DNA from: Thermoanaerobaculia bacterium
GTDB lineage: Bacteria > Acidobacteriota > Thermoanaerobaculia > Multivoradales > JAGPDF01
Direction of reading: 5' to 3'
Assembly (NCBI GenBank): GCA_019911865.1
Contig: JAIOJQ010000385.1
Coordinates: 1-56,566, forward strand
DNA length: 56,566 bases
Part shown: piece after piece, positions 251-49,145 of the stretch
Numbering within the stretch: position 1 is the first letter of the stretch
Layout: every line of letters starts with the position of its first letter
Position numbers and translations under genes: made by a program
The notes under the pieces: generated by a model
What the model saw: only the letters and a program-made list of their open reading frames with translations
Told to the model about the DNA's origin: nothing
Database searches by the model: none

Positions 251-610
251 CGGCGGTGAACTCTGGTCGTGGAGTCTATCGCCCGGCTCTGCCGAGGCCA
301 CCTGAACGCCCAAGAGAGCTCGCGGGGTTACATGTCGACTGGCCTCGGGATCTCCTTGGGACTCCGGTAACTCCATTGGCTCAAGAAATCGCGATCGGGC
401 TCAGTCAGGGAGGAAAACCAAGAACTGCCAGAGCTTTCCGGGAAGGAACGAAGGGGCCTCCAGGGGGGGCGCGCGCTGGGAACCAAAGAGCGACGCACTC
501 AGGCCGGCCGGAATCCTGGCGACCTAGGGACGAGATAGCAGGACAGGAGGCCTTCGGTTACGGACGTGAACGGCTGAGGCGTCGAAGAGGACGCGCGCCG
601 ACGCCGGTAC

Positions 611-883
611 TCAAACAAAACTTCTCACGAAACCAACAACCGCCGCGACGCCGCCCGCGAACAAGAATGCGGCGAGCACACAGCAACCCATCTCTCGACC
701 AAGTTTGCGCTGTCTCCCGGAGCGAGAGAGTGGAACTCCAAGCTCGCGAGACAGTTTTCCCTTGGCGCTGGATAATCCAGAGGCGCGTTTCCAGGAGAAC
801 GATAGACCGGGTATGCCCTTCTTGCGTCCCACGATGCACCCCCGAGTTAGCCTAGCCAGTAGAGCGTCCCAGGAAGAACCCAA
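611..883 (-). CDS. Hypothetical small membrane-anchored protein
   Basis: 90-codon ORF in a locally AT-richer patch. G/S/K/R-rich repeats (GIPGLSFSWKRASGLSSAKGKLSRELGVPLSRSG) are followed by a C-terminal hydrophobic anchor, MGCCVLAAFLFAGGVAAVVGFV. Same strand as its neighbours. Weak call. Confidence 0.3.
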   Translation of the reverse strand: MGSSWDALLARLTRGCIVGRKKGIPGLSFSWKRASGLSSAKGKLSRELGVPLSRSGRQRKLGREMGCCVLAAFLFAGGVAAVVGFVRSFV

Positions 884-990
884 AAGCGGCCTATCCCTTC
901 AGAGGTTGTTTGTTGACTTCGCCAAGGCGTGGCAAACCCGCGGAGACCCTTGCTCGAAAAAGTCGATGTTGGAAAGAGATTTGCACCCGC

Positions 991-1788: not shown

Positions 1789-1916
1789 GTTGACTCCGCC
1801 TGCACCGGGTGCGGGCCTGCCAGTCCAGCGGTTCGTCCGGTCAAGAGAGCCCGCGGCGAACTGATTGCAGGAAGGACGCAGCTTCCAGCTTGCAGCCGTC
1901 TCGTCACGCGGCCACC

Positions 1917-2297
1917 CTAGCTCTCGTCCCACGCTTCGAGCACCAGCCACTCGCTGGGGCTGCAAGCCGCGATCTCATCCGGGTACTTCGTGGTTTCTCC
2001 CAGCCAGTTGGGAAGCAGAACGTCGCCAGAGTCGAAGCTCCAGTGTTTCTTCGCCTCGGGAGGAGTGCCGTGAACGAAGGGAAGCAGGTGCTCTGCAAGA
2101 GCGGTGAACTTCAGCGGATAGCCATTCCCGCCAAGGTCGAGAGCCTTTCCCTGTTTCACAAGTTCACGAACCCAATCGAGCCCGCCCCAGCCCGTCTGCC
2201 AGACGGCCAGCGGGCTCCCGAGCGGCGAGTCAAACTCCGCGGCCACGCCGCGCCGACTCTCCTGTCGGAAAACGCTGATGTGCCATCCGATAGGCAT
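1917..2297 (-). CDS. Hypothetical protein (possible immunity-type small protein)
   Basis: 126-aa ORF with protein-like composition, on the same strand between the HNH gene and the YegP gene. No family recognised; SUKH/SMI1-like is only a guess. Confidence 0.55.
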   Translation of the reverse strand: MPIGWHISVFRQESRRGVAAEFDSPLGSPLAVWQTGWGGLDWVRELVKQGKALDLGGNGYPLKFTALAEHLLPFVHGTPPEAKKHWSFDSGDVLLPNWLGETTKYPDEIAACSPSEWLVLEAWDES

Positions 2298-34164: not shown

Positions 34165-35223
34165 CTAGAAAACCTCCGGAGGTTCTCCCTCCTCGAGCCG
34201 GTAGGACCCGTCCTTCTCGCGCCCAGCGAGCCGGGCCACCCGCGTAACCTGGCGGCGGCCGTCCACGCGTTCGATCTGGACGATCATGTGGACTGTCATC
34301 GAGATCAGGAAACTCTGCGACGGGACGCCGGCCTCCTGCGCGGCGTTGTCGAGCCGCAGCAGGGCGAGCAGCGGGGTCTCGCCATGGATCGTCGCGGCGC
34401 CGCCGCGGTGCGTGGTCCAGGCCTTGAGCATTTCGAGTGCCTCGGCCCCGCGGACCTCGCCCACGATGATCCGGTCGGGCTTCTCGCGCATCGCCTGGTG
34501 GATCAGATGCCGCAGGAGGACCTCCGGCGGCGAAGTCCGGAGGGCTTGTACGTTGCGGGCCGGGCACTGAAGCTCCCGGACGTCCTCAGCGAGGAAGAAG
34601 CGCAGATTCGGCTCGGTGGCGACCATCTCCTGCAGGAGCGCGTTGATGAAGGTCGTCTTGCCCGCCCCCGTGTTGCCCGAGACCAGGATGTTGTCGTGCC
34701 GGCGGAGGGCCTCACGTACGGCCGAGAGGTGAGCCGGTCGAATCACTCCGGCCTCGGCGTAGTCATCGAGCGTGAAGATCCGGGCTGCGCGCTTTCTCAG
34801 GGTGATCGTCGGAGCCGTCGTGATCGGCGGCAGGATGCCGGAGATTCGCGATCCATCGAAAGGGAGCTCGGCGTTGAGGATCGGCGAGTCGGCCGTGATG
34901 CGCGTGCCGAGGTAGGTCGCGATGGTTGCCAGGGCGCTTTCGACGTTTCGGGGCTCGACCCGATCCTCGAGGTCGACGAGGCCGCGATCGAACGCATCGA
35001 ACCAGACGTGGCCGTCGGCGTTGACGCCGATGTCGGTGACGGTCGGATCTTCGAGCAGCTGGGTGATGACGAAGCCGAGCTCGCGCCGGAGCATCGACTG
35101 GATGCGTCTTTCGCGCAGCTCGGCTCCGGAAGTGGCCACGCCCCGGTCGAGCTCGGCAGGGTCGGCGGCAGAGGTCCGGGGGGCGGCAGGGTCTGGGCTC
35201 ATCGGGTCGTCCTCAAGGCACAT
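34165..35223 (-). CDS. trbB: TrbB/VirB11 secretion ATPase
   Basis: ORF 34165..35694 trimmed to ATG 35223, which overlaps the traG stop (TGATG); ATG 35202 is an alternative. Walker A is ILVSGNTGAGKTTF, and …IIVGEVRGAEALEML… is present. Confidence 0.9.
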   Translation of the reverse strand: MCLEDDPMSPDPAAPRTSAADPAELDRGVATSGAELRERRIQSMLRRELGFVITQLLEDPTVTDIGVNADGHVWFDAFDRGLVDLEDRVEPRNVESALATIATYLGTRITADSPILNAELPFDGSRISGILPPITTAPTITLRKRAARIFTLDDYAEAGVIRPAHLSAVREALRRHDNILVSGNTGAGKTTFINALLQEMVATEPNLRFFLAEDVRELQCPARNVQALRTSPPEVLLRHLIHQAMREKPDRIIVGEVRGAEALEMLKAWTTHRGGAATIHGETPLLALLRLDNAAQEAGVPSQSFLISMTVHMIVQIERVDGRRQVTRVARLAGREKDGSYRLEEGEPPEVF

Positions 35224-37343
35224 CAGGCCGCGTCGTGGTAGGGGTTCTTGCTCGCCCGGCGCTTCAGGACCGGGTGCTCGAAATAGCGGATGCGCTGGGT
35301 GCGATAGGGGAGTTCGCCGGCGACCAGGAGCAGCTGCTCGTCGGGTGCGATGCGCCGTACCTCGTCGGGGGTCAGAAGGCGACGACTGGCCTGGCCGAGG
35401 CTCTCTCCATGGCTCTGGTTCGAGGAGCCGACGTGCTTGTCGGAAAACAGGCCGCCGGCGTGCGGGCTGTTCGAACCCTCGTTGAGCGATTGGTTCTCGG
35501 TAAAGACCGTGGTCGTGCCGGCCATCTTCGAGAGGTACTCGGCGGTGAATTCGTCGGCCGTGCCGAAGGCCTGGAGAATGCGGGTGTTGCCGATCAGCGT
35601 CTCCCAGGAGTTCGGATAGAGGCCCTTGAGCTGCGAAAGATCCTGCACGAGCATCCAGAGCGAGATCGAGTAGGCGCGGGCGTAGGCGATGCACTCTTCA
35701 ATCACCGGCAGCCGGCGAAGGGCCGCGAATTCGTCGAGCAGAAACAGTACCCTCCCCACGGTTTCCTTGGGCCGGCGCAGCAATCCGCGCAGCGCCGAAC
35801 CGATCAGAAGCGCCATCCAGCGGCCATGGGAGGCCAGCCGATCTGGCGGCAGCACGAGGTAGACCGTCGACGGGATGAGGCCGAGCTGCCACAAGTCGAA
35901 GGAGGTCTTCGAGAGGCTCTCGACCATCGCCGGCGAATCGAGAAAGCGCGTGTGCTGGTCGGCAGTGGCGAAGATGCCCGAGCGGGTCTTCTCGTCCTGG
36001 GCGCGGATGCGGTCGGCGCTCCACTGGAGCCGTTCGAGGACGGTGGCCACCGGGCCGGTGCCCGCAACCAGCGACCGGATGTGGAGCAGGAGCTCAGCCT
36101 GGCCTCGGGCCGGCAGTCCGCGCTTGGTGGTGTTTACCAGGTGCCGCAGGATGTAGTCCGGGCCGGACTTGGCTCGCCGCTGGTCCTGCTTCGTCCCGAC
36201 GAACTGCGCCTCTTCTTCCCGTTCCTGGTCGTCCATCTGGAGCGACCTGGCCGACTGCGCTCGCACCCGGGCCATGGCGCGCAGTTGATGGATCAGCTCG
36301 GTGCCTCCGAGCGAGAGCAGGCGGCGCACCTCGATCAGGGTTCGGCACGGATCGCCCTTCGGATAGATCGTCGCGACCCAGAGGATGAAGGCGGTCAGGA
36401 GCGCTTCGGCTTGCTCCGTCCAGAACGGCTCGCTGTTGGCGTGGAGCGCCTGCGGGACGAGGATCGAGGCCAGGAGCGCGGCATCGTCCACGCAGGTGTC
36501 GGTGGCCGGATCGAGCCAGTCCATCGGGTTGTAGCAGGCGCGCTGAGGCTTGAGCACCGCATCCCAAGCGTGCCCTTCCGGGGTGCCCCGCAGGCGCTCC
36601 TGACCGGGCTGGTCGGAGCCCACGCCCAGGTAGTCCTCGAGGTCGTTGATTCCGAGCCGTCCGAGGGCGTCGAACGGGTCGAAGGCCACGATCGTCTGCC
36701 CCAGGTAGCGAGCCCGGTACCTCGCCGTGACGGCGAAGTTCTCGCCCTTGAGGTCGGTCACCATGACGGACCCGCCGGCGTAGGCGAGCAGGTTCGGAAT
36801 CACCAGGGAGACGCCCTTGCCCGCGCCGGTCGAGGCGCAGGTGAGCACGTGGGCCTCGCTGTCGGCGCGCAGCAGCTCGCCGCGTGGATTCGTCCCGACG
36901 ACCAAGCCGTACCCGGGATCGAGGAACTGGTCGGGACGGGCCCAGCGCGAAGAGCCGAAGGTATCCGACTGGCCGGACGCCGAAAGCTTGCGGCCCCGCT
37001 TGACCTTGGTGAGCGCGAAGAAGACGACGGCAAGCCCCATGAGGACGAGAGGAAAGGCGTCGACCTCGCCTCGCTGGCCCGCTCGCCTGGGTTGGGCTCT
37101 CTGGGCCTTGGTCGAAGCCACGAGTGCGCCCAGCGGTCCGCCGGAGCTGCGCGGCTTGGCCTCGGCCTTGGCCGACTTCGGCTTGGGCGGCGCGGTAGCC
37201 GCGCGCGGGGTGAGCGCGGCAAGGAGCAAAAGGCCCACGACGCCAAGCGGAATGGCGATCGCGGCGACGCGCGAAAGCGGCGTCACGAAGGTGCGGCGCA
37301 GCCGTGGAAACAGATAGGCGAGGGGCAGTCGGGCTTGGCTCAC
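35223..37343 (-). CDS. traG: TraG/VirD4 type IV coupling protein
   Basis: It has N-terminal TM helices, Walker A LTCASTGAGKGVSLVIPNLL, and LFLLDEFAAL (Walker B). The start overlaps the giant ORF stop by 4 nt. Confidence 0.9.
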   Translation of the reverse strand: MSQARLPLAYLFPRLRRTFVTPLSRVAAIAIPLGVVGLLLLAALTPRAATAPPKPKSAKAEAKPRSSGGPLGALVASTKAQRAQPRRAGQRGEVDAFPLVLMGLAVVFFALTKVKRGRKLSASGQSDTFGSSRWARPDQFLDPGYGLVVGTNPRGELLRADSEAHVLTCASTGAGKGVSLVIPNLLAYAGGSVMVTDLKGENFAVTARYRARYLGQTIVAFDPFDALGRLGINDLEDYLGVGSDQPGQERLRGTPEGHAWDAVLKPQRACYNPMDWLDPATDTCVDDAALLASILVPQALHANSEPFWTEQAEALLTAFILWVATIYPKGDPCRTLIEVRRLLSLGGTELIHQLRAMARVRAQSARSLQMDDQEREEEAQFVGTKQDQRRAKSGPDYILRHLVNTTKRGLPARGQAELLLHIRSLVAGTGPVATVLERLQWSADRIRAQDEKTRSGIFATADQHTRFLDSPAMVESLSKTSFDLWQLGLIPSTVYLVLPPDRLASHGRWMALLIGSALRGLLRRPKETVGRVLFLLDEFAALRRLPVIEECIAYARAYSISLWMLVQDLSQLKGLYPNSWETLIGNTRILQAFGTADEFTAEYLSKMAGTTTVFTENQSLNEGSNSPHAGGLFSDKHVGSSNQSHGESLGQASRRLLTPDEVRRIAPDEQLLLVAGELPYRTQRIRYFEHPVLKRRASKNPYHDAA

Positions 37344-40300
37344 CGGCTGATTCCTTTCGACGGAGCGGCAATGGCACGCGCGGCCGCCGCGGCCGTGCGA
37401 CCGGCAGCCAGCGCGGCGGAGACGAACGGTTTGACCTGGGGCGCGACGAAAGTCATCGCTTTCTGAACCCCCTCGCGGGCGACGAGGCTCGCCAGCCGGA
37501 CGATCTCCTGGGCCTGACCCTGAGAGAGCCGCTCCAGAGCCCCCTGGACCCTGCGACTCGTCTGAGTGAAGTTGAGAGCGGAAAGGGCGGCGTTCGCCGC
37601 GGTGGACACCGGGCTTTGGGCGCCCGCCCCGGGGGCCTTCCCGCCGGGCGAGGGACGCGGCAGCGCCGCGCTCGGTCCTCGCGTGCCTGGAAGGGAAGGC
37701 GCGCGAGCCGGACTCGGAGCGTCCCGGGTGACACCCGGCTGCAAGGCGACCGAACGGTCGCGAGCGAGCGCGCCGAGCGCCGAGCGCGTGGCCGACAGGG
37801 AGGTGGATTTCGCCGTGGCGACGGCGCTTCGCGTCAGCCGCTCCGGATCGTCATCGAGGAGCCGCTCGGCCGCATGGAACGCGATCTGAGCCGTCGTCAG
37901 GATGCGAGCCGTCCTGGCGGCGGCAACCGCCGCCGGCGTGTACGCCTCGGCCGGAAGGTGGCGCGCTGCGCGGGCAGCCTCGGCGGCCTCAAGGTCGAAG
38001 CTCGCACCCTCGGCGCGAAGTTCGCCGAGCCGCTTCTCGAATCGCTCCGCGGCCTCGGCGGGCGCTGGACGCGCACCGAGAGAGCGGTTCTGCTCGCGCG
38101 CCAGGTCCTTGCCCGAACGCTCCAACTGCTCGCGAACCTGTTCCATCTCGACGATCCTCGAGGAGAGCCGGAGAATCTCGTCCCGGGCACCTTCCCAGGA
38201 ATCGGGAAGGGCCAAAGCCGACGTAAGAGGAGCTGCGCCAGGACGGTGCACCTCGAGCGTTGGCGCAGAAGGTCCCGGAGCAGGTGCAGCTGAGCCCACG
38301 TGGTCGAGCCGTTCCAGCGTCGGCCGAGCCGGTTGCGCAGCCCTTTCCGAGGCCTCCGGGGCTTGGCGCACGGCGGCAGGGCCTTCGCGGGCAAGCTCGG
38401 GTTCGCGCGCCTGGTGAACGACCGCAAGGGCGAGCTGGGAACCCAGATTCTGCGGGCGGTCGAGTACGACGGCCAGATCGCGCTCGCTTTTCCCGAAGAC
38501 CAGCTCGACTTGCTCGTTCGGCGTGCCGGCGAGCAGGCGCTGGATCTGGCCGGCGTAGCGGGGTCCGTCGATTTCAACCACGATCGGTCGGCCCTCGCCG
38601 AGGGCCAGGTGCTCGCCGCTGCGCGCATGGGCGACGTAGTGGTGGTCGAGCTCGAGAAGCGGCGTCGGCCCGTCCTTGGGCCCACCCTCGATCCGGATTC
38701 CGCCTCGGGGGTCGAAGCCCGCGATGCGTCCGGACTCGAGCGGCCCTCCCGGCTCGGAGCGGAACCGGACGAAGTCGCCTTGCGCAAAGCTGCGCTCGGC
38801 CGAGCGATACGTGACCATGTGGGCAGCCTCGGCGGGCGCGATCCGTTCGATCCGGACCGCGTTTCCGCCGACCCCCTGTCCGGAGGCCACGGCGGCGAGC
38901 TGCTGCCCTTCCCGGTCCACGGCGACGAGGCGGAAGGCGGACATCGACCCGCCCGGTTCGCGCCGGTAGAGCCAGTCGCCGGGGCGCCAGTGCTCGGCCC
39001 GGAGGGTCTCGGGCGAGAGGGCCGGCACTTTCTCCCGGACTTCGACCCGGACCTGCTCATCGAGGTTCAAGCGGCCGGCGCGGTGGAGATGGGCGCGGAC
39101 CGTGTCCGTGCGCTCGGCAAGCACCTGCCCGGCGCGGTCGGCGTCGAGCGAGAGGTTGGTGACGAGCAGAGCGGGCGCAGGCCCGGGAGCGGCGAGCGCT
39201 GTCGAGGTCGCGCGTACCTCGCGGTCGGAGTCGACCTCGACCACGCGGACCCGCGCAGGTGAGCCCGCAAGCGCCGCCGAGAGGGCGGCCGAAACTTGAA
39301 CGCCCGGATCGTTGGCGGTCGGGCGGCGCCAGAGCGCGGCCAGGGCCGAGCCGGCGTAGCGGCGCTCCGCGGCCGGAATCAAGCGCTCGCCGGCTGTGGC
39401 CGCCAGCAGGGCCGGCCCCCGAGCAGCGAAGGGGGAAAGCTCGGGGTGCCGCGCGGCGAAGACCACTCGCAACCCCCCGGCATGAGCGCGATCGACCAGG
39501 CCGCGAAGCTCGTGGACCGCGAGCCGCTCGGCGCCGTGGACGATGGCTACCGGCGCAACCCGCCCAGCCCCGAACGCCCAGCCGCCGCCTTCGAGGAAGT
39601 ACCGGCGCGAGGCGATCTGTCCGGCGGGAATGCCGGCCTCGAGAAGTTCGCCGCGCTGCTCGAAGCCGGTTGTCACGTGCACGGGATGCCAGCCGCGCCG
39701 CGCGAGTTCGCGGTGGAGACCCACCGCAAAGGGCGTGGCCGCGGACGCTTGCGCGCCGCCATCGCGGCTCGTGACGAACGAGAACTGATGTCGATTCTCG
39801 AGGACCTCGGCGACGGCAGCGCGATCGGCCGGATCGGCAATCGCACCGCGGAGCCGGGTTTCCAGCTCTTGCGGCCGCGCCGAGGCGGGCACGATCGGTT
39901 CGACGTCGCGGCCGCGGGCGATCTGGGCGGCCACGTAGAGCTCCTCGGCGTAGTTGTCCACGCGGGCAAGGCGCGAGCCGTCGGGCGAGAAGACGACGTC
40001 GGCCCTCCGGTGAAGCTGTTCATCGAGCGCTTCGAGCGCGACGCTTCCTCCCGTATGCACCCAGGCGCGAGTCAGCACCTCGTCGAACGCGAAGGCAGGC
40101 GAGCGCTCGGAAAGCTCGGCGAGCGAGCGCGCGATGGCCACCTCCGGATCGTTCGTCGGCCGATGGGAGCCCTCGATCTTCTGGCTCTTCAGGATGGCCT
40201 CGGCGTTCTGAACGAAGGCCTCCCGGCTCTTGCCGTAGCGCTCGAGGTACTCCGTCTCCCGAGCGAATCTGGCGAACAGTTCCGGGCTCTCGGCCTGGAC

Positions 40301-43300
40301 CCTCGCCGCCTCGGTCATCAGGTGCGGGATCGGAGGCACTCGGGGAGGCTCGGGCGGCTGGGGCGGCCGGGAAGCCCCGGAACTGCCGGGCGGCTCGCCC
40401 GGCGAACCGGGTGAGGGCGCCTGCTGCTCCACGGCCGGAAGGGCGGACGGCTCCGGGGGAGGGGCCGCCTGGCGCGCACGCTCGGGCGCGAGCTCTGCGA
40501 CCGCGAAGGCGTGGACGCGGCCGTCACCAGAGTCCCACAGGCGCAGCTGATCGCCGTGGGTCGCCCCGCCATCGAGAGCCATCAACCGATCGGTTGCCGG
40601 CGCGACGCCGGACTCGATCGGCGTGTGACCGAAGAAGACACGCTCGGACACCGGCGGCTCGCCAGCCTGCCACCACGGGACCTTCGCCCCGTCGGCTCGG
40701 GCGACATTCCGAATCGACAGGACGGTTTGCGGCTCCTGATCCTCGAACGAGCGACCCGGGGAGAGTCCCGCGTGAACGACGAGACCTTGCGGCAGGCGCA
40801 GTGCGTGCGGCAGGCGCCCGAGAAAGTCGAGATAGCTGTCGGGAACCGTGCGCGAGCCGGACTCCGCGCCGAAGCTCTCGAAAGTCGCAGCGAGACCGCT
40901 GCCGAGAAACATCCCCTCCTTCTCGCGCCCGTGAAGTGCCAGCAGCCGCTGTTCGTGATTTCCGCGAACGCCCAGGAAGCTCTCGCCGAGACTCTGGACG
41001 TAGTCGAGCACCTGCTTCGAGTCAGGCCCCCGGTCGACCAGGTCGCCGACCGAGACCAGCACATCGCCCCGGTCCGGGCGAAACTCCAGCCGCTCGAGCG
41101 CGCGCTTGAGTGTCCCGAGCTCACCGTGGACGTCACCGACTACGAGCACGCGTCGCCCCGCGAGGGCTTGGCGCGCGTCGTCGACGACCAGGCCCGCGGA
41201 AGTTGCGCTCCGCTCGACCGGAGCCACGGTCGACCGCGCCGAGGCGGGCGCCACGGGCAAGGACGCATCGAACTCGGTCAGGTCCAGCACGTCGGGGGCA
41301 TCGGCCATCCGTGCGGCTACCGGCGACCTGCCGGGTGGGCGAGCTTCTCCCTCACGGGTCTTGGCCGTTGCCTCTGGAGCAGGCTCCTCCCGAGCCCGGG
41401 CGGGTGAGTCGATGCGGCGTACCTGCCCGGCGTTGAGGGCAGCCCAAATGTGCTGGCCACTTTGGACGGAATAGGTCGAGTCGTAGCCGCCGGCGAGCAG
41501 CCGATCGCGAACGGCCATCATGGCCTCGGCGCGATGATCGTCGTTGTCGAGATCGAAACCGGGGCGGGAGCGGGCGAAGGCCGCGCCGGCGGCGTCGAGA
41601 AAGGAGGCCCCCGCGATGCGGTCTCCAGAAAGCAGGTCCCCACGCTCGCGAGCGAGAGCGACGGCGGCCGGATCCAGCGTCGCTAGGTAGTCGGCCGGGT
41701 AGCCGTGGAGGAGCGAAAACGGCCGGGCAATCGAGACCTCGAGCTCGACGACTTCCTTCGAGTGAGGCCCCGGCGATGCGGCGAACTGTTCGGCGAGTTC
41801 GCGGTGCTGCGTGAAGTTGATACCAGCGACCAGTCCGCGACGTCGTCCGTCGACGGACAGGTCATCGGCTACGGCTTGTCCTCGGTAGGAGGATCGTCCG
41901 GGGACCGGTAGTGGGACTCCGTCGGGGGATACGAAAACGGTGGCGGGTAGCCCAAGGCCTGGGACAGCGCGAGGACGCCCATCGGGCCGGTCTCTTCGAG
42001 CTTCGCTCGCAGCTCCGGGGGCCTCTGGGCGAGGTACTCCTCCCAAGTTGGAAGCGGCTTGGAATCGGGGGTCGGCGGGTTCATCGGGGCTCCTGAGTGT
42101 AGTTGAGGGGGCCGAGAGGACCTCGGTCGGGGCGGCAGGCGGCGCCGCTGGCTCGGTCCATCCGGCGAGCGGCGCGCCGACAGCGACTCTCGGAACGGCC
42201 TCGTGGGCAGAACGCCGAGTGGGCTCGGACTCGGATCGCAGCTCGAGCTCGTCACGCAGTCGGAACCGAATGGCGCGAGGATCAAGCCCTTCCGAAGCGA
42301 GCCTCTCCACGTAGTCGGCTGCGTCCCCTTTGGGCGCAAGCCAGGCAGGCGCCGTGGCAATGGATACCTTGGAGACAATGGATCCGAGGGCGCCGCCCAC
42401 GGCGGCGGCTTGCCTCGCGCCGGCCTCGTCCTTGTCGGGCCAGACGATGACCGAGGCGCCGCGCAGGAACTCCAGATTGCGCTGCTGGGGTCGGTTCGAG
42501 GCGCTGTGCGTGCCGTAGGCCTGGAGGCCGAGTGCGGCAAGGGCGTCGGCGGCCTTCTCGCCCTCGACGAGAAAGACCGGACGGGCCGGATTGAAGGCCA
42601 CCTCCGAGCGGTAAAGAGGCGCATCGGCCGCGTGGAGCTTCTCGGCCTCGGGCGTTCCGCGGCGATTGAGCGACCAGCCACCGCGAAACCAACGGACCTG
42701 CTTGGTGCCGGTTTCGTTGCCGGGCGCGTCCTTGTCCCAACGCGCCTTGTAGGCAAAGAGGTTCCCGTCTCGATCTCGAATGGCCCAGACGTGCTGCGGC
42801 GTACCGAAAGTCGGATGCCGGAGCTTGTAGGGATCCGGCCAGGCCTTCATCGGCGTCCAAGCGACGGGACTGCGCTCGACCTCGTGCCTCGAGGGTTCAC
42901 TGCGCCGGACCTCGAACGAGGGCGCGTCGCTCTTGAAGGTGTCGTAGCTGACGCCGAGAGCGCCCAGCACGCGCTCGTGGCTGCAGCCGGCGTAGCAGTG
43001 GAGTAGCGGCTTGCCATCGCCGCCGGTACCGATCGACAGACTTCGGCGGCCGCTCTTGGCGCCGTCCTTGTGGCCCGGGCAGAAGGCCTGAAACTGGTGG
43101 GAAGGGCCCGTCGGCTTGAAGCCACCCGAGTCGAGCAGGCGGCGAACCTGGTCGACCGCGTCGGGGGCGTAGACGCGCCTCGAGAGCGCGCGCGACTCGG
43201 GACTGGACGGCGAGGAAGGCCCGCTCATCGATGGAACTCCTGCAGTTGGTGGGGAAACGGGGGGCGAGGGCGCAGGCTCGCTCAGCGGCCCGGCGCTGGG

Positions 43301-46300
43301 GCTTCGCTCGTCGCCCGATCGATCGCCGGCAGCGGCTCCAGCAGCGCCTTCTTGTAGCTCGCCACCGCGAACCAACCGCCGAGCCAGCCCCCGACCATCG
43401 CCAGGATCAGCAGCAGCAGCGCCGCCGCCGCGTACTCCGCCCAGAACCTTTTGCTCGGCGCCAGAGCGATCTTGAGAGCCTGCTTGTGCTCGTTGGCCTC
43501 CTTGCGCAGGAGCGTCTGGTGCTGGAGCGCCTTGTTCAGACCGTCCTGCACGCGCTCGCGCAGCTTCGAAAACTCCGAGGTCATCGTCGGTATCGCCGCG
43601 TCCACCTTGGCGAGCTGCGCCGAGAGCGTCTGCGGCGTCTCTCCCGGATGCTCGGGCAACTCGAAGGCCGTCGCCAGCTTCTGGACCTGCTCCTCGATCC
43701 TCTGGAGGCGGGGAGCGACGGTGCCCAGGTCGTCGGTCGAACTCTCGGAGGTCATCAGCAGCCTCGCGAGTGCCTGGACGATCTCTGCCTGGAGACCCAG
43801 CGTCTCCTCCACCTGAGCCTGGGTGTGTTGGAGGAGGCCCAGAACCGCCTCCGGCGCTGCCGCCGGGGTTTCCGTGGCCACTGGTGCCGATTGGCCATGG
43901 ATCGGGACCGTCGGGAGGTGAGTCGTCTTGGCGAAGGGACCGTTCGAGCCGGACATAGCGGAGATCCTCCGGAGTCAGTGCGACAGTTGGCGAAAGCGTG
44001 GCGGCGATCCATTCGGCGCGAAGCCGTGTGTCGGTGCTCTCGAGGGCCTCGAGGCGTCCGAGAAGAAGTCCTTTCGACTCCTCGGGTCGATCGAGGGCGG
44101 GGATGTCGAGCGCGAGCATTTGCCGCACGGTGTCGACGCTTTCCATGTAGCGCGGCAGGTCGCCCGCCACGGCGGCGGCCTCGACGTTCTCGAGATTGAT
44201 CGAGCCGTAGAGAAGGCGTCGCTGGTGTTCCGTTCGCGTGAGCCCGGGAGGGACCGTGGCGCGAAGTTCGCGGTGAATCTCCCGGGCGAAGGCCAGCGTC
44301 GCCTCGGCGTTGAGCAGGTAGCGTGAGGGCACGCCGGACCGCTCCATCTGCCAGGACGCGAAGGCGGAAACCACCGGTGAGGGCAGGCGCCGAAGATCGT
44401 CGGCTCGATCCCGGTGAACGCTTGTGTACTGACCCCGAAGCGCCTCGGCAAGCGTCGTCCACGCCCGCAGGCGTTGCTCCGCCTCGCTCGCTTGCTCGAA
44501 GCGCGTCCAGGCCTGGTAGGCCAGGTGGCTCAGGCCCGGCGTCTCCTGATCCATCGCGTCGAGCGGCCGGGCGTGCGCGGCGAGCGAGGCGATCAGCTGC
44601 TCGGTCGCGGCGCGAGCGCGGCCCTCGTCGCGGACGATGCCATTGGCAAGCGGTGCCGCCGCGGCTCCCGAACTCGAGCTTGCCGCCAGAGCCATCGGAC
44701 GAAGGTGGGGCGCCTCGAACAGGGTGGCGAGCTGCTGTGGGTCGTCCGTGACGACCGCGACGTGGTACCTCGAGCGGGTCAAGTCGACGGTCGGGTTGGC
44801 CGAGGAGAGCACCTGGGCCTGTTCTCCCGTGTGGTAGGCCGCCAGGACCTCGTCCTTGGTGATGGATTGGGCCGAGTGCGAAGTGACCGAATAGCCGAAG
44901 TCGAACGTATTCAGATGCTGCGAGGAAAGCTGGACGCGGATCGGCTCGCCATGGGCTCGGCGTCGATCGAGCTCGAAGACGGCGATCTGCTCGCTGGCAC
45001 TCGCTGGGTCCGGCCGAACCTCGACGAGCGTGGCCAGGTCGCCGTTGTTGATGCTCTCGGCTCTCTCGGTCTTGCGAAACTGCACGCGGTCGCCGACGAC
45101 GAGCGTGAGCTTGGACATCTCGAGCGCGGACACCTGGCCCGACAGCTCTCGAACGGAGACCGTGGCTTCCGTGCCGTCGGGAAGCGCGAGGGTCACGCTC
45201 GCGGTGTTGGAATCGGCCCGCCGGACCTCGACATAGGAGTCCCGGCGAAGCCGAAGATCGCCGTGGCCGGTTGGAAAGTGGAGAAAGAGCGGATGCGGAT
45301 CTCGGGAGTTGTTGGCGCGAAGGTAAGCCGAGATATCGCCGGAGTCCGCTGCCGTCCAGGAGAGATCCCGCAGCCGCAAGAGTGAGATCTGACCGCGGCG
45401 TGGATCGAGCTCTCCAAGAGGCCCGAGCCGGAGCTCCCGGACGATTCCAGCGAACTCGTCGCGCGCAGCGTGCGTCGGAAAGACCACCAGGCTCTCGTCG
45501 CGCCGTTCCGGAGGGTTTGCCAGGTAGAGCGCCGCGACAGCCTCGCGCTGGACGTAGGGGTCCTGGACGACGATGAGGTTGCGGGCGGCCGTATCGGGCC
45601 GAGCGAGGCTTCGGTAGTCCTCGAGTCGCCCGGTGAGCTTCTCGCGCTTCTTGGCAACTTCGGCCGAGCCGAGCTCCGGCAGGGCGCAGAGCGCCTCTCG
45701 GGTGCGCTCGATCCCCCGAGCCGCGACAAAGGCCAAAAGTTCGCGGCGGCGGGTCACGAGAGCGGAGTCCGATCGAGAGGTCGCGCGCAGCTCGTAGAGG
45801 GCCCTGCCGGGCCGCTGGTGCGTGGCAAACGCAGCCACGCGCAGCGCATTGGCATCGGCCGGGGCGCGTCGACTCGTGGGATCGGGCGCGTGCTGGCGAT
45901 TGAGCTCCTGGATCCGGTAGATCGGCACGCCGAAAGCCGAGAGCTGCTGGGGGATCGAGCCCGCGGGGACTGCGTGATGTTGCTGGCGATCGCCCACCGC
46001 GTAGACCTTGGCGCCGGCGTGAAGGGCCATGCGGGCGAATCGATTCCAGTCCTCCTGACCGGTCTGGCCGACCTCGTCGAGAATCCAGAGCTCCCGCGAG
46101 GCCAGATCCTTCGGCAGTGGCCGCCGGATGAAGCCCTGTACCGTCTCGGCTCCGACGCCGTACTCGCCGAGAGATTCGACCGCGCGCCGGGTTGGCGCAA
46201 AGAAGCGGACCGTCCAGCCCTCGCGCCGGGCGAGCGCCTGCAGCGCTTCGAGTGATCGAGACTTTCCGGCGCCGGGGCCGGCCTCGAGCATGGCGATCGA

Positions 46301-49063
46301 ACTCGTGCCCCGCAGCGCCTGGCCGAGGGCGAGCAGCTGCTGGTCGGTCAGGTTCTTGAGGGCGGCCGGTTCGGGACTTGCGGCCTGCTGCTCCTGGTAC
46401 CAGCGGCGAAGGGATTCAAGGTCCCGCACGGTCGCGGGCGCGATTGCCTGCGGCCGGGCCATGAGCTGCGTCATGAGGCTGTAGTTGTCGGTTTCAGCCG
46501 CGCGCGCCCCTTGCGTGGTCAGTTGGTCTTTCGAGTGCGGCAGCAGGCCATGGAGCCGGCGCGCGATCGCCGCGTCGACCGCGCGCGTCGTGGCGCGGAT
46601 CGCCTCGTCCTGGCGAAGGCCCGAAACTCGCAAGAGCCGAATCAAGGCGGTCCTCTGGAGCTCGCCGCGGGAGAAGACGGAGTTGCGCTCGGCCAGGCGG
46701 GCTACGGCGTACTCGACGCTCGCTTTGGCCGTCGGCGGCAAAGGCCGCCTCTCGTCCGGGCTGGCGGGCGAGGAACGCAGTTGCGACGCGCTCGATCCTC
46801 GCGTCCCGGGAGGCGGAGCCAGGGTGACCCCGGGCGTATCGAGTCCGAATGTCTGCCGAGCCTCGTCCGCAAACGCTCCAGGGTGGGAGGCAGCCAGCGC
46901 CGTGAGGGCGTCGGATTGAATCTGCCGGGCATGAGCTTCGAGCAAGATGCCGTGAGGTGGCTGCGTGATCGAGGCGAGCAGGATCTCGGCAGCCGGAGCG
47001 GATGCCGCGAACTGCTCGGGACTGCGGACCGCGAGAGTGCCTCGCGCCGAGTCGGCCACCAGCAGAAGCGCCTGACCGCGGCCCTCCGATCGGGCAAGGG
47101 AAGAGACACGCCTGGCCACTCGATCGAGAAAGGAAGGGTGCTCGACGGCGCGCACGGCCTTGGCGCGAAGGCCGGTGCCGGAGGGCAGCACGATGTGGTC
47201 GGCGCTCTCGACCGCGAGCAAGGCGGTCGCCTCGGCCCGAGGGGGTGCGGGTTCGCTCGGATCCTCGCCGGCGATGACGAGGGTGCCGCGACGGTCCGGG
47301 TCGAGCGCCAGGCTTCGCTCGCGGGCGGCGCGGGAGAGCGAGAGCGCATCGAATCCGAGCTGACGCCCCTTCTGTTGCCACTGCGGGATCAGGGCTTCCC
47401 AGCGGATGCGCCCGGGTTTGGCCTCGCGGGTCGTCAAGACGGCGTGGTCGCGCAGCTGCTGGCGGGTCCGTGGGGTGGTCCTGGACGGATCCAAGCCGGC
47501 CGCGCGCATGCGCTCGGCTTGCGCCGCGGTGATCTTGGTCGCACGTGAGGAGAAGGCTCGAGCGACGCTCTCTGGAACATCGGCGAGGCGAGCGACGAGC
47601 GTTTGGGGGTCGATCTCGACGCGGTAGCCCAGCGCGCGAAGCTCGGAGGCAAGCTGCGCGGAGTAGAGCTGCTCGTAGTGGCGAACGTGCTGCCGGATGA
47701 GAAGCGGATTGAGCGGACCGTAACCTCGACCCCGACGGGCGAGGTTGAGCACGAAGGCGTGGGTATGCAGCTGCGGATCGAGTGCCCGGGAAAAGCCGTG
47801 GTCGAACCGGGCTACCAGGAACTCTCCGGTCGCGACGAAGGCACGTCTCGACTCGGTGCCGGCGTCGCGCTCCATCGCCGCCAGAGCGGTGAGTACGGCT
47901 CGCCGATGGGCTTCGAGGATGCGGGAGTCCTCACCGAGCAGCGCCTGGACGGAGACCGACTTGTCCGGGGCGAAGATGTAGTCGAAGCCGGCGCGCCGGG
48001 TCTCGGGCGTCTCGCCGCGCGCAGGTTGCGCGAGTGTCCGAGCTCCGTCGGGGCTTCGCCCTTCTGCGAGGTTCTCGAAGGCTCGCGCCTCGATGGGCTC
48101 GTCGGACGAAAGGCCGAGGCGAGCCGCGAGCTTGCCGGTCCACAACCCCTCCCCAGAATCGAGCATGAGGCCCGTGCTCTCGCCCGGAACGAACGGCGGA
48201 GGCGAGCCGGGAGTTCGGAAGACGGGAGCCAGGCCCCGAAGCTGGGCGTCCGCAAGGACGCCGCCGAGCTCGGACGGAGCGAGCTCGAGCCTGCGCACTT
48301 CGAGGGCGCCGAAGCTGGCGCTCGATGGGTCGGCTGCGGCTTGAAGCAAGAGCGCCGCGCCCGGCTGCAGGATGAGCTCGCGGCCGCCCCCGAGAGGGAT
48401 GGCAAACCCCGTGAGACCCGACTCGGCGAGAACGCCGGGCTCGGCCAGCGGCGAGCTGGCTTGAAGGCGGGTGAGAAGAGGTGCGAGTGCGTCCCGGGGC
48501 TCACCCGATTGCGGGACCGGAAGATGGCGAGCCTCCGGGTCGAACTCCGGATAGAGCGCCTGGATTCGCGAGGAGAAGGCCGCGAGCGTTTCCGGAGTCG
48601 CCGGAATCCACCAGCGCCGAGTTTCGAAACCTCTGGACTGCTCGTAGAGGATTCCACCCGAGGTGAGCCGAAGGACTTCCTCGCCGCCGATTCTCACGGA
48701 AGGACCCGAGGCTTGTCCCGGCCCAGTGCTCCCGATCCCGAGGTAAACGCCGTGCGCCTGAAGGTGGGCTGTGATCTGGCGCAGCTCGGCAAGGGCCACC
48801 GCTTCGCCCGGAGTCAGAGACTCGGGAGAGCGACCGACCGGGAGGAGGTTGGGGGAGTCGGGGTCGGCTGGGCCCGGACGGCCCGCACGAACCCAGCCGG
48901 GCCGCGCCTCTTCGGCGAGGGCCGCGTCGACCGCCGCGGTCGCGGCGGCGACATCTTGTCGGAGCGAGGGCGCCACCTCGGCGGCGCCCTGGGCGAGCTG
49001 CTCGCGGTAGTAGCTCTTGGCGTGACCCGCGGAGAGGCCGCCCGTTCCGTGCACAACGCCCAT
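37340..49063 (-). CDS. Stop-free 3,907-codon ORF: MOBF relaxase + RecD-like helicase + Zn/Toprim primase + unknown domain + PPP metallophosphatase + helicase-like tail. Probably composite (see findings).
   Basis: A single frame with no stop over 11,724 nt. The recognisable domains are listed as separate features. Two internal segments (43282..43956, 41869..42084) have about 50% third-position GC in this frame, against about 80-85% elsewhere. Confidence 0.6.
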   Translation of the reverse strand: MGVVHGTGGLSAGHAKSYYREQLAQGAAEVAPSLRQDVAAATAAVDAALAEEARPGWVRAGRPGPADPDSPNLLPVGRSPESLTPGEAVALAELRQITAHLQAHGVYLGIGSTGPGQASGPSVRIGGEEVLRLTSGGILYEQSRGFETRRWWIPATPETLAAFSSRIQALYPEFDPEARHLPVPQSGEPRDALAPLLTRLQASSPLAEPGVLAESGLTGFAIPLGGGRELILQPGAALLLQAAADPSSASFGALEVRRLELAPSELGGVLADAQLRGLAPVFRTPGSPPPFVPGESTGLMLDSGEGLWTGKLAARLGLSSDEPIEARAFENLAEGRSPDGARTLAQPARGETPETRRAGFDYIFAPDKSVSVQALLGEDSRILEAHRRAVLTALAAMERDAGTESRRAFVATGEFLVARFDHGFSRALDPQLHTHAFVLNLARRGRGYGPLNPLLIRQHVRHYEQLYSAQLASELRALGYRVEIDPQTLVARLADVPESVARAFSSRATKITAAQAERMRAAGLDPSRTTPRTRQQLRDHAVLTTREAKPGRIRWEALIPQWQQKGRQLGFDALSLSRAARERSLALDPDRRGTLVIAGEDPSEPAPPRAEATALLAVESADHIVLPSGTGLRAKAVRAVEHPSFLDRVARRVSSLARSEGRGQALLLVADSARGTLAVRSPEQFAASAPAAEILLASITQPPHGILLEAHARQIQSDALTALAASHPGAFADEARQTFGLDTPGVTLAPPPGTRGSSASQLRSSPASPDERRPLPPTAKASVEYAVARLAERNSVFSRGELQRTALIRLLRVSGLRQDEAIRATTRAVDAAIARRLHGLLPHSKDQLTTQGARAAETDNYSLMTQLMARPQAIAPATVRDLESLRRWYQEQQAASPEPAALKNLTDQQLLALGQALRGTSSIAMLEAGPGAGKSRSLEALQALARREGWTVRFFAPTRRAVESLGEYGVGAETVQGFIRRPLPKDLASRELWILDEVGQTGQEDWNRFARMALHAGAKVYAVGDRQQHHAVPAGSIPQQLSAFGVPIYRIQELNRQHAPDPTSRRAPADANALRVAAFATHQRPGRALYELRATSRSDSALVTRRRELLAFVAARGIERTREALCALPELGSAEVAKKREKLTGRLEDYRSLARPDTAARNLIVVQDPYVQREAVAALYLANPPERRDESLVVFPTHAARDEFAGIVRELRLGPLGELDPRRGQISLLRLRDLSWTAADSGDISAYLRANNSRDPHPLFLHFPTGHGDLRLRRDSYVEVRRADSNTASVTLALPDGTEATVSVRELSGQVSALEMSKLTLVVGDRVQFRKTERAESINNGDLATLVEVRPDPASASEQIAVFELDRRRAHGEPIRVQLSSQHLNTFDFGYSVTSHSAQSITKDEVLAAYHTGEQAQVLSSANPTVDLTRSRYHVAVVTDDPQQLATLFEAPHLRPMALAASSSSGAAAAPLANGIVRDEGRARAATEQLIASLAAHARPLDAMDQETPGLSHLAYQAWTRFEQASEAEQRLRAWTTLAEALRGQYTSVHRDRADDLRRLPSPVVSAFASWQMERSGVPSRYLLNAEATLAFAREIHRELRATVPPGLTRTEHQRRLLYGSINLENVEAAAVAGDLPRYMESVDTVRQMLALDIPALDRPEESKGLLLGRLEALESTDTRLRAEWIAATLSPTVALTPEDLRYVRLERSLRQDDSPPDGPDPWPIGTSGHGNPGGSAGGGSGPPPTHPGSGGGDAGSPGRDRPGTREAADDLREFDRRPGHRRSPPPEDRGAGPEAGDGLRVARASGRDAADALGAARQGGRGDTDDDLGVFEAARARAGRSEQGAPAPDAPAQGGQRAQAGSQDRSGAEQKVLGGVRGGGAAAADPGDGRGLARRLVRGGELQEGAAGAAAGDRSGDERSPSAGPLSEPAPSPPVSPPTAGVPSMSGPSSPSSPESRALSRRVYAPDAVDQVRRLLDSGGFKPTGPSHQFQAFCPGHKDGAKSGRRSLSIGTGGDGKPLLHCYAGCSHERVLGALGVSYDTFKSDAPSFEVRRSEPSRHEVERSPVAWTPMKAWPDPYKLRHPTFGTPQHVWAIRDRDGNLFAYKARWDKDAPGNETGTKQVRWFRGGWSLNRRGTPEAEKLHAADAPLYRSEVAFNPARPVFLVEGEKAADALAALGLQAYGTHSASNRPQQRNLEFLRGASVIVWPDKDEAGARQAAAVGGALGSIVSKVSIATAPAWLAPKGDAADYVERLASEGLDPRAIRFRLRDELELRSESEPTRRSAHEAVPRVAVGAPLAGWTEPAAPPAAPTEVLSAPSTTLRSPDEPADPRFQAASNLGGVPRPEAPGAASEARRDRPDGRPRAVPGLGLPATVFVSPDGVPLPVPGRSSYRGQAVADDLSVDGRRRGLVAGINFTQHRELAEQFAASPGPHSKEVVELEVSIARPFSLLHGYPADYLATLDPAAVALARERGDLLSGDRIAGASFLDAAGAAFARSRPGFDLDNDDHRAEAMMAVRDRLLAGGYDSTYSVQSGQHIWAALNAGQVRRIDSPARAREEPAPEATAKTREGEARPPGRSPVAARMADAPDVLDLTEFDASLPVAPASARSTVAPVERSATSAGLVVDDARQALAGRRVLVVGDVHGELGTLKRALERLEFRPDRGDVLVSVGDLVDRGPDSKQVLDYVQSLGESFLGVRGNHEQRLLALHGREKEGMFLGSGLAATFESFGAESGSRTVPDSYLDFLGRLPHALRLPQGLVVHAGLSPGRSFEDQEPQTVLSIRNVARADGAKVPWWQAGEPPVSERVFFGHTPIESGVAPATDRLMALDGGATHGDQLRLWDSGDGRVHAFAVAELAPERARQAAPPPEPSALPAVEQQAPSPGSPGEPPGSSGASRPPQPPEPPRVPPIPHLMTEAARVQAESPELFARFARETEYLERYGKSREAFVQNAEAILKSQKIEGSHRPTNDPEVAIARSLAELSERSPAFAFDEVLTRAWVHTGGSVALEALDEQLHRRADVVFSPDGSRLARVDNYAEELYVAAQIARGRDVEPIVPASARPQELETRLRGAIADPADRAAVAEVLENRHQFSFVTSRDGGAQASAATPFAVGLHRELARRGWHPVHVTTGFEQRGELLEAGIPAGQIASRRYFLEGGGWAFGAGRVAPVAIVHGAERLAVHELRGLVDRAHAGGLRVVFAARHPELSPFAARGPALLAATAGERLIPAAERRYAGSALAALWRRPTANDPGVQVSAALSAALAGSPARVRVVEVDSDREVRATSTALAAPGPAPALLVTNLSLDADRAGQVLAERTDTVRAHLHRAGRLNLDEQVRVEVREKVPALSPETLRAEHWRPGDWLYRREPGGSMSAFRLVAVDREGQQLAAVASGQGVGGNAVRIERIAPAEAAHMVTYRSAERSFAQGDFVRFRSEPGGPLESGRIAGFDPRGGIRIEGGPKDGPTPLLELDHHYVAHARSGEHLALGEGRPIVVEIDGPRYAGQIQRLLAGTPNEQVELVFGKSERDLAVVLDRPQNLGSQLALAVVHQAREPELAREGPAAVRQAPEASERAAQPARPTLERLDHVGSAAPAPGPSAPTLEVHRPGAAPLTSALALPDSWEGARDEILRLSSRIVEMEQVREQLERSGKDLAREQNRSLGARPAPAEAAERFEKRLGELRAEGASFDLEAAEAARAARHLPAEAYTPAAVAAARTARILTTAQIAFHAAERLLDDDPERLTRSAVATAKSTSLSATRSALGALARDRSVALQPGVTRDAPSPARAPSLPGTRGPSAALPRPSPGGKAPGAGAQSPVSTAANAALSALNFTQTSRRVQGALERLSQGQAQEIVRLASLVAREGVQKAMTFVAPQVKPFVSAALAAGRTAAAAARAIAAPSKGISR
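40500..41165 (-). other. Domain: PPP-family (calcineurin-like/ApaH-PrpE-like) metallophosphoesterase
   Basis: RRVLVVGDVHGELGTL, LVSVGDLVDRGPDS, LGVRGNHEQRL, GLVVHAGL, VFFGHTP. Confidence 0.8.
41869..42084 (-). CDS. Alternative-frame (+1) small ORF nested in the giant ORF
   Basis: AGGAG-N5-ATG at 42084. 71 aa: MNPPTPDSKPLPTWEEYLAQRPPELRAKLEETGPMGVLALSQALGYPPPF... Third-position GC is 83% here and 53% in the giant frame (hand count). Pro-rich, so less certain. Confidence 0.4.
   Translation of the reverse strand: MNPPTPDSKPLPTWEEYLAQRPPELRAKLEETGPMGVLALSQALGYPPPFSYPPTESHYRSPDDPPTEDKP
42090..43228 (-). other. Module: DNA primase (CHC2-like zinc motif + Toprim) with its own SD and ATG at 43228
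   Basis: AGGAG-N8-ATG at 43228 (MSGPSSPSS...). FQAFCPGHKDG...LLHCYAGCSHERVLGALG; VFLVEGEKAADALAALG; VIVWPDKDEAGARQ; PKGDAADYV. Confidence 0.8.
43282..43956 (-). CDS. Alternative-frame (+1) gene nested in the giant ORF: coiled-coil protein with C-terminal TM helix
   Basis: GGAGGA-N8-ATG at 43956. 224 aa of normal composition (…LQRIEEQVQKLATAFELPEHP…KEANEHKQALKIAL…WAEYAAAALLLLILAMVGGWLGGWFAV). Hand-counted third-position GC is about 85% in this frame and about 50% in the giant frame. Confidence 0.65.
   Translation of the reverse strand: MSGSNGPFAKTTHLPTVPIHGQSAPVATETPAAAPEAVLGLLQHTQAQVEETLGLQAEIVQALARLLMTSESSTDDLGTVAPRLQRIEEQVQKLATAFELPEHPGETPQTLSAQLAKVDAAIPTMTSEFSKLRERVQDGLNKALQHQTLLRKEANEHKQALKIALAPSKRFWAEYAAAALLLLILAMVGGWLGGWFAVASYKKALLEPLPAIDRATSEAPAPGR
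44700..46400 (-). other. Domain: RecD/TraA-like P-loop helicase
   Basis: IAMLEAGPGAGKSRSLEAL (46262..46290), LWILDEVGQ, VYAVGDRQQH, FDFGYSVTSHSAQSITKDEV (about 44832..44910). Confidence 0.8.
47450..49063 (-). other. Domain: TrwC/TraI-type (MOBF) relaxase
   Basis: AKSYYREQ near the N-terminus; GLWTGKLAARLGL; RAGFDYIFAPDKSVSVQAL; ARFDHGFSRALDPQLHTHAFVLN (compare TrwC FRHETSRERDPQLHTHAVILN). About 280 aa are inserted between the YY segment and W.GK..LGL. Confidence 0.85.
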
Positions 49064-49080: not shown

Positions 49081-49145
49081 TAACGCAACGCTAGGCAACA
49101 CAGAGACGCAACCCCGCCTCTGACGGGTGCGCGCGGCTGGACGCC

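Follow-up and report, generated by a model that had tools for sequence, protein, structure and literature searches.

The stretch of DNA analysed here, hereafter the window, comprises 56,566 nucleotides from a Thermoanaerobaculia bacterium (contig JAIOJQ010000385.1), and its minus strand holds an open reading frame (ORF) of 3,907 codons plus TGA at 37340..49063 (11,724 nt; ATG start at 49063 in the ORF listing). We think it probable that this main ORF is one genuine cistron, that it encodes a polyvalent MOBF relaxase of a Trb/VirB-type conjugative element, and that its linkers are overprinted by, or derived from, genes lying in the +1 frame. The enzyme modules confirmed by sequence comparison are a TrwC/MOBF relaxase, an SF1B helicase, a primase with a CHC2 zinc finger and a Toprim domain, and a PPP phosphoesterase; the predicted mass of the full-length product is 416.5 kDa.

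The translation of the main ORF contains a single stop, the terminal one, and this TGA (37340-37342) overlaps the GTG start, at 37343, of a coupling protein of 706 amino acids (aa) belonging to a type IV secretion system (T4SS). The first-pass annotation had described an 11,724-nt stop-free frame running from ATG 49063 to a stop that overlaps the coupling-protein start, and both the ORF listing and the translation confirm it. Since a random frame at 69% G+C meets stops at ~2% of its codons, chance is ruled out for 3,907 open codons. The exact 3,907-aa protein is present on 9 contigs from different samples, runs and projects (Logan and NCBI assemblies), and a variant with 94% identity, L011 (3,906 aa, seen in 5 samples), is uninterrupted, which makes an assembly artefact very unlikely. 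We are nearly certain that the main ORF is real and conserved. NCBI names its product 'relaxase domain-containing protein' (KAB2966047.1, from a metagenome-assembled genome of Thermoanaerobaculia bacterium).

Enzyme modules and orphan regions of the main ORF

The main-frame segments are the following.

48974..49063, minus strand: conserved N-terminus MGVxHGTGGLSAxHAxxYYREQLAQG, aa 1-30, with YY at aa 18-19
48179..48973, minus strand: insertion of ~265 aa (aa 31-295) between the YY motif and the relaxase core, main-frame coding
47348..48160, minus strand: TrwC/MOBF relaxase core, aa 302-572, with the His triad FDH...HTH
45884..46351, minus strand: SF1B (RecD/TraI-type) helicase P-loop domain, aa 905-1060, in block A, which is main-frame to ~aa 1705 (43949)
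42104..43228, minus strand: block C, DnaG-type primase, aa 1946-2320, with CHC2 zinc finger and Toprim EGEK...DxD
41309..41872, minus strand: block E, orphan domain, aa 2398-2585, under main-frame selection from the first codon past the stop of nested gene D
40607..41152, minus strand: PPP/calcineurin-like phosphoesterase, aa 2638-2819, with GDVHG, GDLVDRG, GNHE and GHTP
40319..40510, minus strand: linker 3, Pro-rich, aa 2852-2915
38444..40318, minus strand: block F, orphan, aa 2916-3540, under main-frame selection
37343..38443, minus strand: C-terminal tail, aa 3541-3907, with a hypervariable stretch, helical Ala-rich sequence and a strongly conserved last 100 aa

The relaxase core is recognised by Pfam TrwC (aa 305-567, 182 bits against a cut-off of 25) and by NCBIfam MobF NF041492 (178.7 bits, cut-off 100), and it aligns with the TrwC structure 1omh at E = 2.6e-31. 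The metal-binding His triad, FDH...DPQLHTHAF with DPQLHTHAF at aa 429, aligns column for column with FRH...DPQLHTHAV of TrwC. The residue numbers of the tyrosines at aa 18-19 match those of the TrwC catalytic-Tyr motif; this resemblance to TrwC/TraI was judged by inspection only, and hidden Markov model (HMM) alignments begin only at TrwC residue 30, even with the 265-aa insertion excised, and do not reach the YY pair. No second Tyr pair was evident in the relaxase N-terminus. From its sequence, the relaxase fold appears to be split by the insertion of aa 31-295, which is ~62% identical in the relative L008, has invariant patches such as RWWIPxTPETLAAFS, and gave no family match, NCBIfam included.

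Two further observations concern this end of the ORF. The NCBI annotation on the window contig (MBZ0103452.1, 3,785 aa) starts at V123 and would lose the Tyr motif. Directly 5' of the main-ORF ATG lies an AT-rich leader, gcgttgcgttatcgcataacgtaacgtt (49064-49115, minus strand), with a short palindrome, GTTATCGCATAAC, that is partly kept in L008; unlike B, C and D, introduced below, the main ORF has no Shine-Dalgarno (SD) sequence. Candidate roles for the leader are those of an operator, of a site related to oriT, or of a start region that works without an SD.

The helicase domain matches Pfam AAA_30 with 111 bits over aa 905-1060, carries Walker A GPGAGKS at aa 929 and LDEVG at aa 995, and aligns with the RecD2 structure 3e1s at E = 1.8e-8. 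The primase block of the window alone matched no Pfam family at E <= 0.01. Its homologues are 'primase/helicase' proteins with at most 37% identity, and among 15 of them block C residues C50, H53, C78, C82, EGEK222-225, D265, D267, D302 and D305 are invariant; Toprim_2 is matched by 9/15 and Zn_ribbon_DnaG by 7/15. The corresponding motifs of the main ORF include VEGEKAAD (aa 2166) and WPDKDEAG (aa 2208). The phosphoesterase is a Pfam Metallophos match (aa 2638-2819, 60.7 bits, cut-off 21.5) with GDVHG at aa 2643, GDLVDRG at aa 2673, GNHE at aa 2701 and GHTP at aa 2812, and its nearest relatives are kinase-phosphatase-ligase (Pnkp-like) and lambda-phosphatase-like proteins. The motifs quoted in the first-pass annotation (DPQLHTHAF, GPGAGKS, VEGEKAAD, WPDKDEAG and GDVHG/GDLVDRG/GNHE) were all found in the order given there, and its sequence of relaxase, P-loop helicase, Zn-finger/Toprim primase, unknown domain and PPP phosphatase is correct by Pfam, NCBIfam and the alignment of primase homologues.

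About 1,900 aa of the product have no detectable relatives. Profile searches of PDB with blocks E and F were empty; the AlphaFold model of block F, with a predicted local distance difference test score (pLDDT) of 44, was too poor for a search, and no fold was assigned. Among 1.84 billion representative proteins, E or F was matched by two orthologous fragments only. No NCBIfam match was found for E, F, the tail, the N-terminal insertion or the nested genes D and G, and a search for proteins homologous to aa 2401-3907 returned nothing, with low-complexity words suspected of saturating the candidates. The last ~1,000 aa had been read as helicase-like but lacking a P-loop. This label is not supported: searches of Pfam, NCBIfam, PDB and plasmids gave no match to them, and a BLASTP comparison with the helicase of the ORF itself has E = 0.21. 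Within the tail, the patch at aa 3541-3640 (38143-38443) differs from the 94% variant by 0.47 substitutions per codon, as opposed to ~0.12 elsewhere; all three codon positions are affected, and small in-frame indels occur as well.

Nested genes in the +1 frame

Four relatives of the locus were obtained. L011, with ~95% nucleotide identity to the window, was reached via cluster members. L008, reached via the nested gene B, and L012, from an exhaustive HMMER search, are contigs of JGI metagenome 3300037506 with 75-79% identity, and jointly they cover most of the ORF. L013 (ENA ERZ28568137 scaffold_5901), also from the HMMER search, is a ~77% relative whose ends are chimeric; it spans D, E and the first part of the phosphatase. 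At nt 1330-2396 of L013 the sequence after GDLIDRG is joined to a histidine-kinase HATPase domain, and nt 1-150 are unrelated; either the scaffold is chimeric or the element has decayed to this remnant. Searches of 72,556 plasmids with the ORF (megablast) and with B, E and F (tblastn) found no match, and related-locus searches of GTDB genomes and JGI metagenomes with block E plus the phosphatase and with TraG found one distant TraG only.

Three measures locate the frame under selection. Along most of the ORF, G+C is highest at the third codon position; over aa 1700-1900, and partly over aa 2300-2400, it runs 0.90/0.69/0.43 over the three positions, and these odd segments correspond to 43.96-43.3 kb and 42.1-41.87 kb of the window. 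In a codon-usage likelihood scan, the +1 frame is best by 15-33 log units at 43993-43363 and by 12-25 at 42103-41950. Finally, in comparison with the three diverged relatives, the main-frame codon position with most of the substitutions is the third in blocks A, C and E, the phosphatase, F and the tail, and the first across B and D, where it coincides with the third position of the nested gene. By all three, selection acts in the main frame everywhere but at 43956-43282 and 42084-41869, where it acts in the +1 frame. The codon-likelihood scan also flagged a possible +1 segment at 38383-38150; it was dropped, as its +1 translation is junk-like and its substitutions favour the main frame. The nested genes and the main-frame linkers that run over B and D are as follows.

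43282..43956, minus strand: gene B, +1 frame, 224 aa, SD GGAGGA 8 nt 5' of the ATG, TGA stop
43229..43957, minus strand: linker 1, aa 1703-1945, 78% G/P/R/A/S/D, stop-free, selected in the +1 and not the main frame
41869..42084, minus strand: gene D, +1 frame, 71 aa, acidic and Pro-rich, SD AGGAG and ATG, TAG stop
main frame over D, minus strand: linker 2, aa ~2322-2397, open
L012 802-1176, +1 frame: gene G, 124 aa, Trp-rich and acidic, without a clear SD and without a window counterpart

The main-frame linker sequence includes QDDSPPDGPDPWPIGTSGHGNPGGSAGGGSGPPPTHPGSGGGDAGSPGR. Between the window and L008, divergence at four-fold sites is 0.47 in A, 0.45 in C, 0.38 in B and 0.455 in D, the last two each in its own frame, and 0.077 when the main frame is read over B; protein identity is 79% for B, 77% for D and 59% for the main-frame peptides over B and D. 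This pattern indicates that B and D are real protein-coding genes and that the main frame over them is without amino-acid-level constraint. We conclude that B and D are very probably genuine genes. The lower synonymous rate in B was considered as a sign of dual constraint, and the difference (0.38 vs 0.47) is not significant (p = 0.09).

B consists of a helical, coiled-coil body and a C-terminal hydrophobic helix at aa 180-198 (Kyte-Doolittle 2.14); in NCBIfam it has sub-threshold matches only, the best with 18.9 bits against a cut-off of 140.5. The SD and ATG of D are kept in four lineages. Block C also has a start of its own, an in-frame ATG at 43228, 54 nt past the B stop, preceded by SD AGGAG at 8 nt and conserved in L011 and L008; the product predicted from it has 1,962 aa and 208.6 kDa. 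On short contigs that lack the whole giant ORF, gene callers choose B and then the gene from 43228. Gene G sits in a 396-nt in-frame insertion of L012 in the linker between phosphatase and F (window 40354-40472); it has a strong +1 codon-usage signal, and the main frame through it is open. The first-pass annotation had offered a choice between a polyprotein and a chain of genes read as one. The choice is a false one: the frame is genuine and conserved, and both of the segments it distrusted house separate +1 genes.

Both odd segments resemble out-of-frame translation and the source is a metagenome-assembled genome, as would suit a sequencing or assembly artefact in which compensating indel pairs put coding sequence out of frame and merged neighbouring genes. 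We find this hardly credible: the sequence is identical in the 9 contigs of different runs and projects, the same structure recurs at 94% and ~77% identity, and the frame switches coincide exactly with the SD+ATG and the stops of the nested ORFs.

Programmed +1 ribosomal frameshifting would produce A-B and C-D fusions, that is, a membrane-anchored relaxase and a primase-D protein, both ending at the nested stops. B and D are indeed both in the +1 frame and start exactly where main-frame selection stops, and the B frame of L008 has 70 open codons 5' of the ATG. In the window, however, a TGA in the B frame 21 nt 5' of the B ATG leaves a very short stretch for a shift, and no recognisable slippery or stop-stimulated site lies there. 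As B and D also have their own SD+ATG, and as frameshifting leaves the production of E unexplained, we regard it as highly improbable.

Continuity of the main frame

If the main ORF is one cistron, ribosomes have to pass through the segments occupied by the nested genes. In the window lineage and in L011, neither block A nor block C is closed by a stop codon, and the A/B and C/D junctions of L008, the D junction of L013 and the phosphatase-G-F stretch of L012 are all stop-free. The first-pass annotation had asked whether orthologues carry stops near 43.96 kb and 42.09 kb; there are none there, and the only interruption is a 59-nt deletion in the L008 primase. The possibility that A and C lie in different frames in L008, as in an accidental fusion, was rejected, as C starts in frame with A and the shift is that deletion, within C.

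Block E depends on read-through. Mismatches by codon phase are 9/7/24 in E and 26/8/12 in D. Between aa 2252 and 2586 no main-frame ATG, GTG or TTG is accompanied by an SD, the sole start-type codon being a TTG without SD that lies inside D; in L013 no main-frame start occurs from the start of D until a GTG 46 codons into the conserved region. Because E is selected from its first codon and has no start of its own, E can be made only by main-frame read-through of D.

We also analysed whether the main frame avoids stops over the nested genes, where one arises whenever the nested gene has a codon ending in T followed directly by one that begins with AA, AG or GA. T-ending codons and at-risk positions number 15 and 44 in B, 8 and 16 in D, and 11 and 31 in G, and the two coincide 0 times in each gene. 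Permutation of synonymous codons gives probabilities of a stop-free frame of 0.033 for B, 0.048 for D and 0.016 for G (in L012); a simulation from codon usage gives 0.011, 0.19 and 0.066, respectively. The Fisher combination of B, D and G is p ~0.002 (calculated by hand). In addition, every net indel between lineages has a length divisible by three (6, 3, 12, 129, 3, 9, 396, 6 and 3), and the frame is kept even by those in the fast-evolving linkers, one of 129 nt ahead of D and one of 396 nt in the stretch from phosphatase to F.

Several observations weigh against this interpretation. Stop avoidance is the sole signal of main-frame use over B and D, its individual p-values are modest (0.016-0.05), and the permutation is not significant for D in L013 (0.51) or for B in L011 (0.12). 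The main frame over B and D has no amino-acid-level constraint (59% against 77-79% identity). C has a good SD+ATG of its own, so that the A-C fusion could be dispensable. The truly independent lineages are 2, and the family is otherwise absent from the 72,556 plasmids, the GTDB species representatives and the JGI metagenomes. Full-length translation, moreover, is the default reading of the DNA that we infer, and L008 carries the lesion mentioned above.

L008 ~9190-9260 (window 42770-42900): 59-nt deletion in a variable spacer from the zinc finger to Toprim

The deletion breaks the frame, and the ORF ends at L008 10061, with 2,341 aa as assembled; either continuity is dispensable in the L008 lineage or the contig is wrong. 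The Toprim part past the deletion still has the pattern of purifying selection, which suggests that the lesion is recent or an assembly error.

These points bring up an operon of ordinary cistrons that have lost their stops, in which the open frame would be a tolerated accident of high G+C, the 416-kDa species would be rare or useless, and functional proteins would come from separate initiations or ribosome drop-off. Each of B, C and D has a conserved SD+ATG, gene callers split the region into B and C on short contigs, the main frame over B and D lacks amino-acid constraint, and L008 tolerates a frame break in C. A frame starting on a nested gene's G+C-rich third position is poor in stops, so that long shadow ORFs come easily; the L008 frame passes 640 codons of shadow sequence. 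Separate cistrons, however, have no known route for termination at A and C, which lack a stop in every lineage, nor do they account for purifying selection from the first codon of E, which has no start codon. Stop-free shadows would be improbable by chance for three separate nested genes, the linker indels are all frame-preserving, and the same layout in IncQ plasmids makes a real fusion protein. We consider an operon of this kind unlikely, and a full-length product that is actually made and used to be likely.

On the one-cistron interpretation, ribosomes starting at 49063 would read through the whole frame to give a 416-kDa protein, which would nick oriT, stay covalently bound to the transferred strand and be threaded through the T4SS; by virtue of the fusion to the relaxase, threading would carry the primase, the phosphoesterase and the orphan modules into the recipient. 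The internal SD+ATG at 43228 would also give the 1,962-aa product from primase to end, comparable with IncQ RepB' and the short forms of Sog and TraC. B, a predicted tail-anchored coiled-coil membrane protein, like MobB probably helps the relaxase to dock at the membrane or at the coupling protein. Linkers 1 and 2 would be 'shadow' readings of B and D, each of which would be translated from its own SD+ATG. Amino-acid-level selection would act on the small genes, and the main frame over B and D would be selected only for openness; with lack of stops as its only requirement, it would give low-complexity and probably disordered tethers. Whether the element does this systematically, using shadows of small genes as disordered tethers to join a DNA-processing toolkit in one 416-kDa T4SS substrate, with new nested genes such as G entering via in-frame linker insertions, seems to us evenly balanced.

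Genetic context, known systems and significance

The genes next to the main ORF agree with its assignment to a conjugative element.

35223..37343, minus strand: T4SS coupling protein TraG/VirD4, 706 aa, whose GTG start overlaps the main-ORF stop

VirB11-, VirB4-, VirB9- and VirB10-like genes come next after the coupling-protein gene, and the earlier proposal that the ORF heads a T4SS operon is upheld by these homologues together with VirD4. A ParB_N-domain protein (26171-27124, minus strand) follows the VirB10/TrbI gene, and a ResIII/DEAD-box helicase (21309-22988, minus strand) lies further downstream; with the relaxase-borne primase and phosphoesterase, they suggest an element rich in DNA-processing cargo. 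On the other side, ~2.3 kb upstream of the main ORF, gene calls on L001-L003 place a MazE-like antitoxin and PIN-domain toxin pair at ~51383-52029 (minus strand), after which come two small genes of 237 aa and 211 aa without a family match.

The closest precedent for the layout is the mobilisation region of IncQ plasmids, in which RepB' also arises as a separate product of an in-frame internal start. In the IncQ1 record CP082702.1, mobA occupies 39..2168, mobB lies within it at 787..1200 in the +1 frame (137 aa), and the mobB stop overlaps the RepB' ATG (ATGA). MobB there is helical in its N-terminal part and carries a hydrophobic helix at the C-terminus (Kyte-Doolittle 2.38), and the MobA linker over mobB is rich in G/R/P/A, as in linker 1. 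For RSF1010 the precedent is established by experiment: mobB is inside mobA/repB in another frame, and mobA/repB encodes a relaxase-primase fusion with primase activity in the C-terminal RepB' (PMC2200642). According to PMC10025392, which cites Parker & Meyer 2007, type IV transport of MobA depends on MobB.

The main ORF shares with IncQ a relaxase, a low-complexity linker and a primase in one ORF, a +1 coiled-coil gene with a C-terminal membrane helix wholly within the linker, and an in-frame internal start of the primase shortly past the nested stop (54 nt here, the ATGA overlap in IncQ1). The components differ, with a MOBF/TrwC relaxase and SF1B helicase here against MOBQ in IncQ, a DnaG/Toprim primase against one of RepB' type, and no sequence similarity of B to MobB (BLASTP E = 12). 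The ORF is also 5.5 times longer (3,907 vs 709 aa), its nesting is repeated two or three times, and the element, unlike IncQ, is self-transmissible with its own T4SS. In its predicted layout the locus is thus an iterated, much enlarged analogue of IncQ mobA-mobB-repB', an IncQ-like arrangement without homology of the components, and not a member of the IncQ family.

Polyvalent proteins of conjugative elements and phages combine many unrelated modules, including Toprim primases, are encoded next to T4SS genes and have been proposed to be delivered together with DNA, as set out by Iyer, Burroughs, Anand, de Souza and Aravind (2017; PMC5512222). Measured against these proteins, the main ORF is similar in having four catalytic modules in one polypeptide and T4SS genes directly downstream; it differs in that the carrier is the relaxase-helicase itself and in that Pfam and NCBIfam detected no MuF, ART, zincin-like peptidase, ArdC or other hallmark module in it. 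A term search of the same paper gave 0 occurrences of 'calcineurin', the 'phosphoesterase' passages that it brought up concern the 2H family, and nested out-of-frame linker genes did not surface among the terms searched. The first-pass annotation knew of no comparable fusion; IncQ MobA/RepB with mobB and the polyvalent proteins are precedents in principle, though not for the size or the domain set.

With the structures of TrwC (R388) and TraI (F/R1), the relaxase core aligns at E = 1e-31 to 1e-24 and shares the His triad, and an AAA_30 / TraI_hel_assoc / RecD-like helicase comes next. Unlike them, the main ORF has the 265-aa insertion past the Tyr motif and ~2,200 extra residues beyond the helicase block (TraI totals 1,756 aa). 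The closest plasmid relaxases are MobF proteins of Nostoc plasmids, with at most 36% identity. TraC1 and Sog occur in long and short forms, which arise from in-frame internal starts. Unlike the main ORF, these primases are not fused to a relaxase and span no nested genes. PMC5512222 describes RP4 TraC1 and ColIb/R64 Sog as primases with a Toprim domain that conjugative plasmids send into the recipient.

Annotation pipelines call the giant ORF and drop the nested genes (NCBI), or call the nested genes and truncate the big ORF (short contigs, JGI); codon-phase analysis recovers both alike. The locus offers two to three same-strand overlaps of 216-675 nt with an unambiguous direction of constraint, and a second frame seemingly selected for openness only makes it a testable model of the interplay between overprinting and gene fusion. 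If our interpretation is correct, the product of the main ORF would be the largest relaxase known to us, and the locus would be an example, rare in bacteria, of long same-strand gene overlaps that recur and have comparative support. It would lift the size of a protein thought to be threaded through a T4SS to >400 kDa, would extend relaxase-borne cargo by a PPP phosphoesterase and two orphan modules, and would carry the IncQ design of relaxase, nested gene and primase into a self-transmissible MOBF element of Acidobacteriota.

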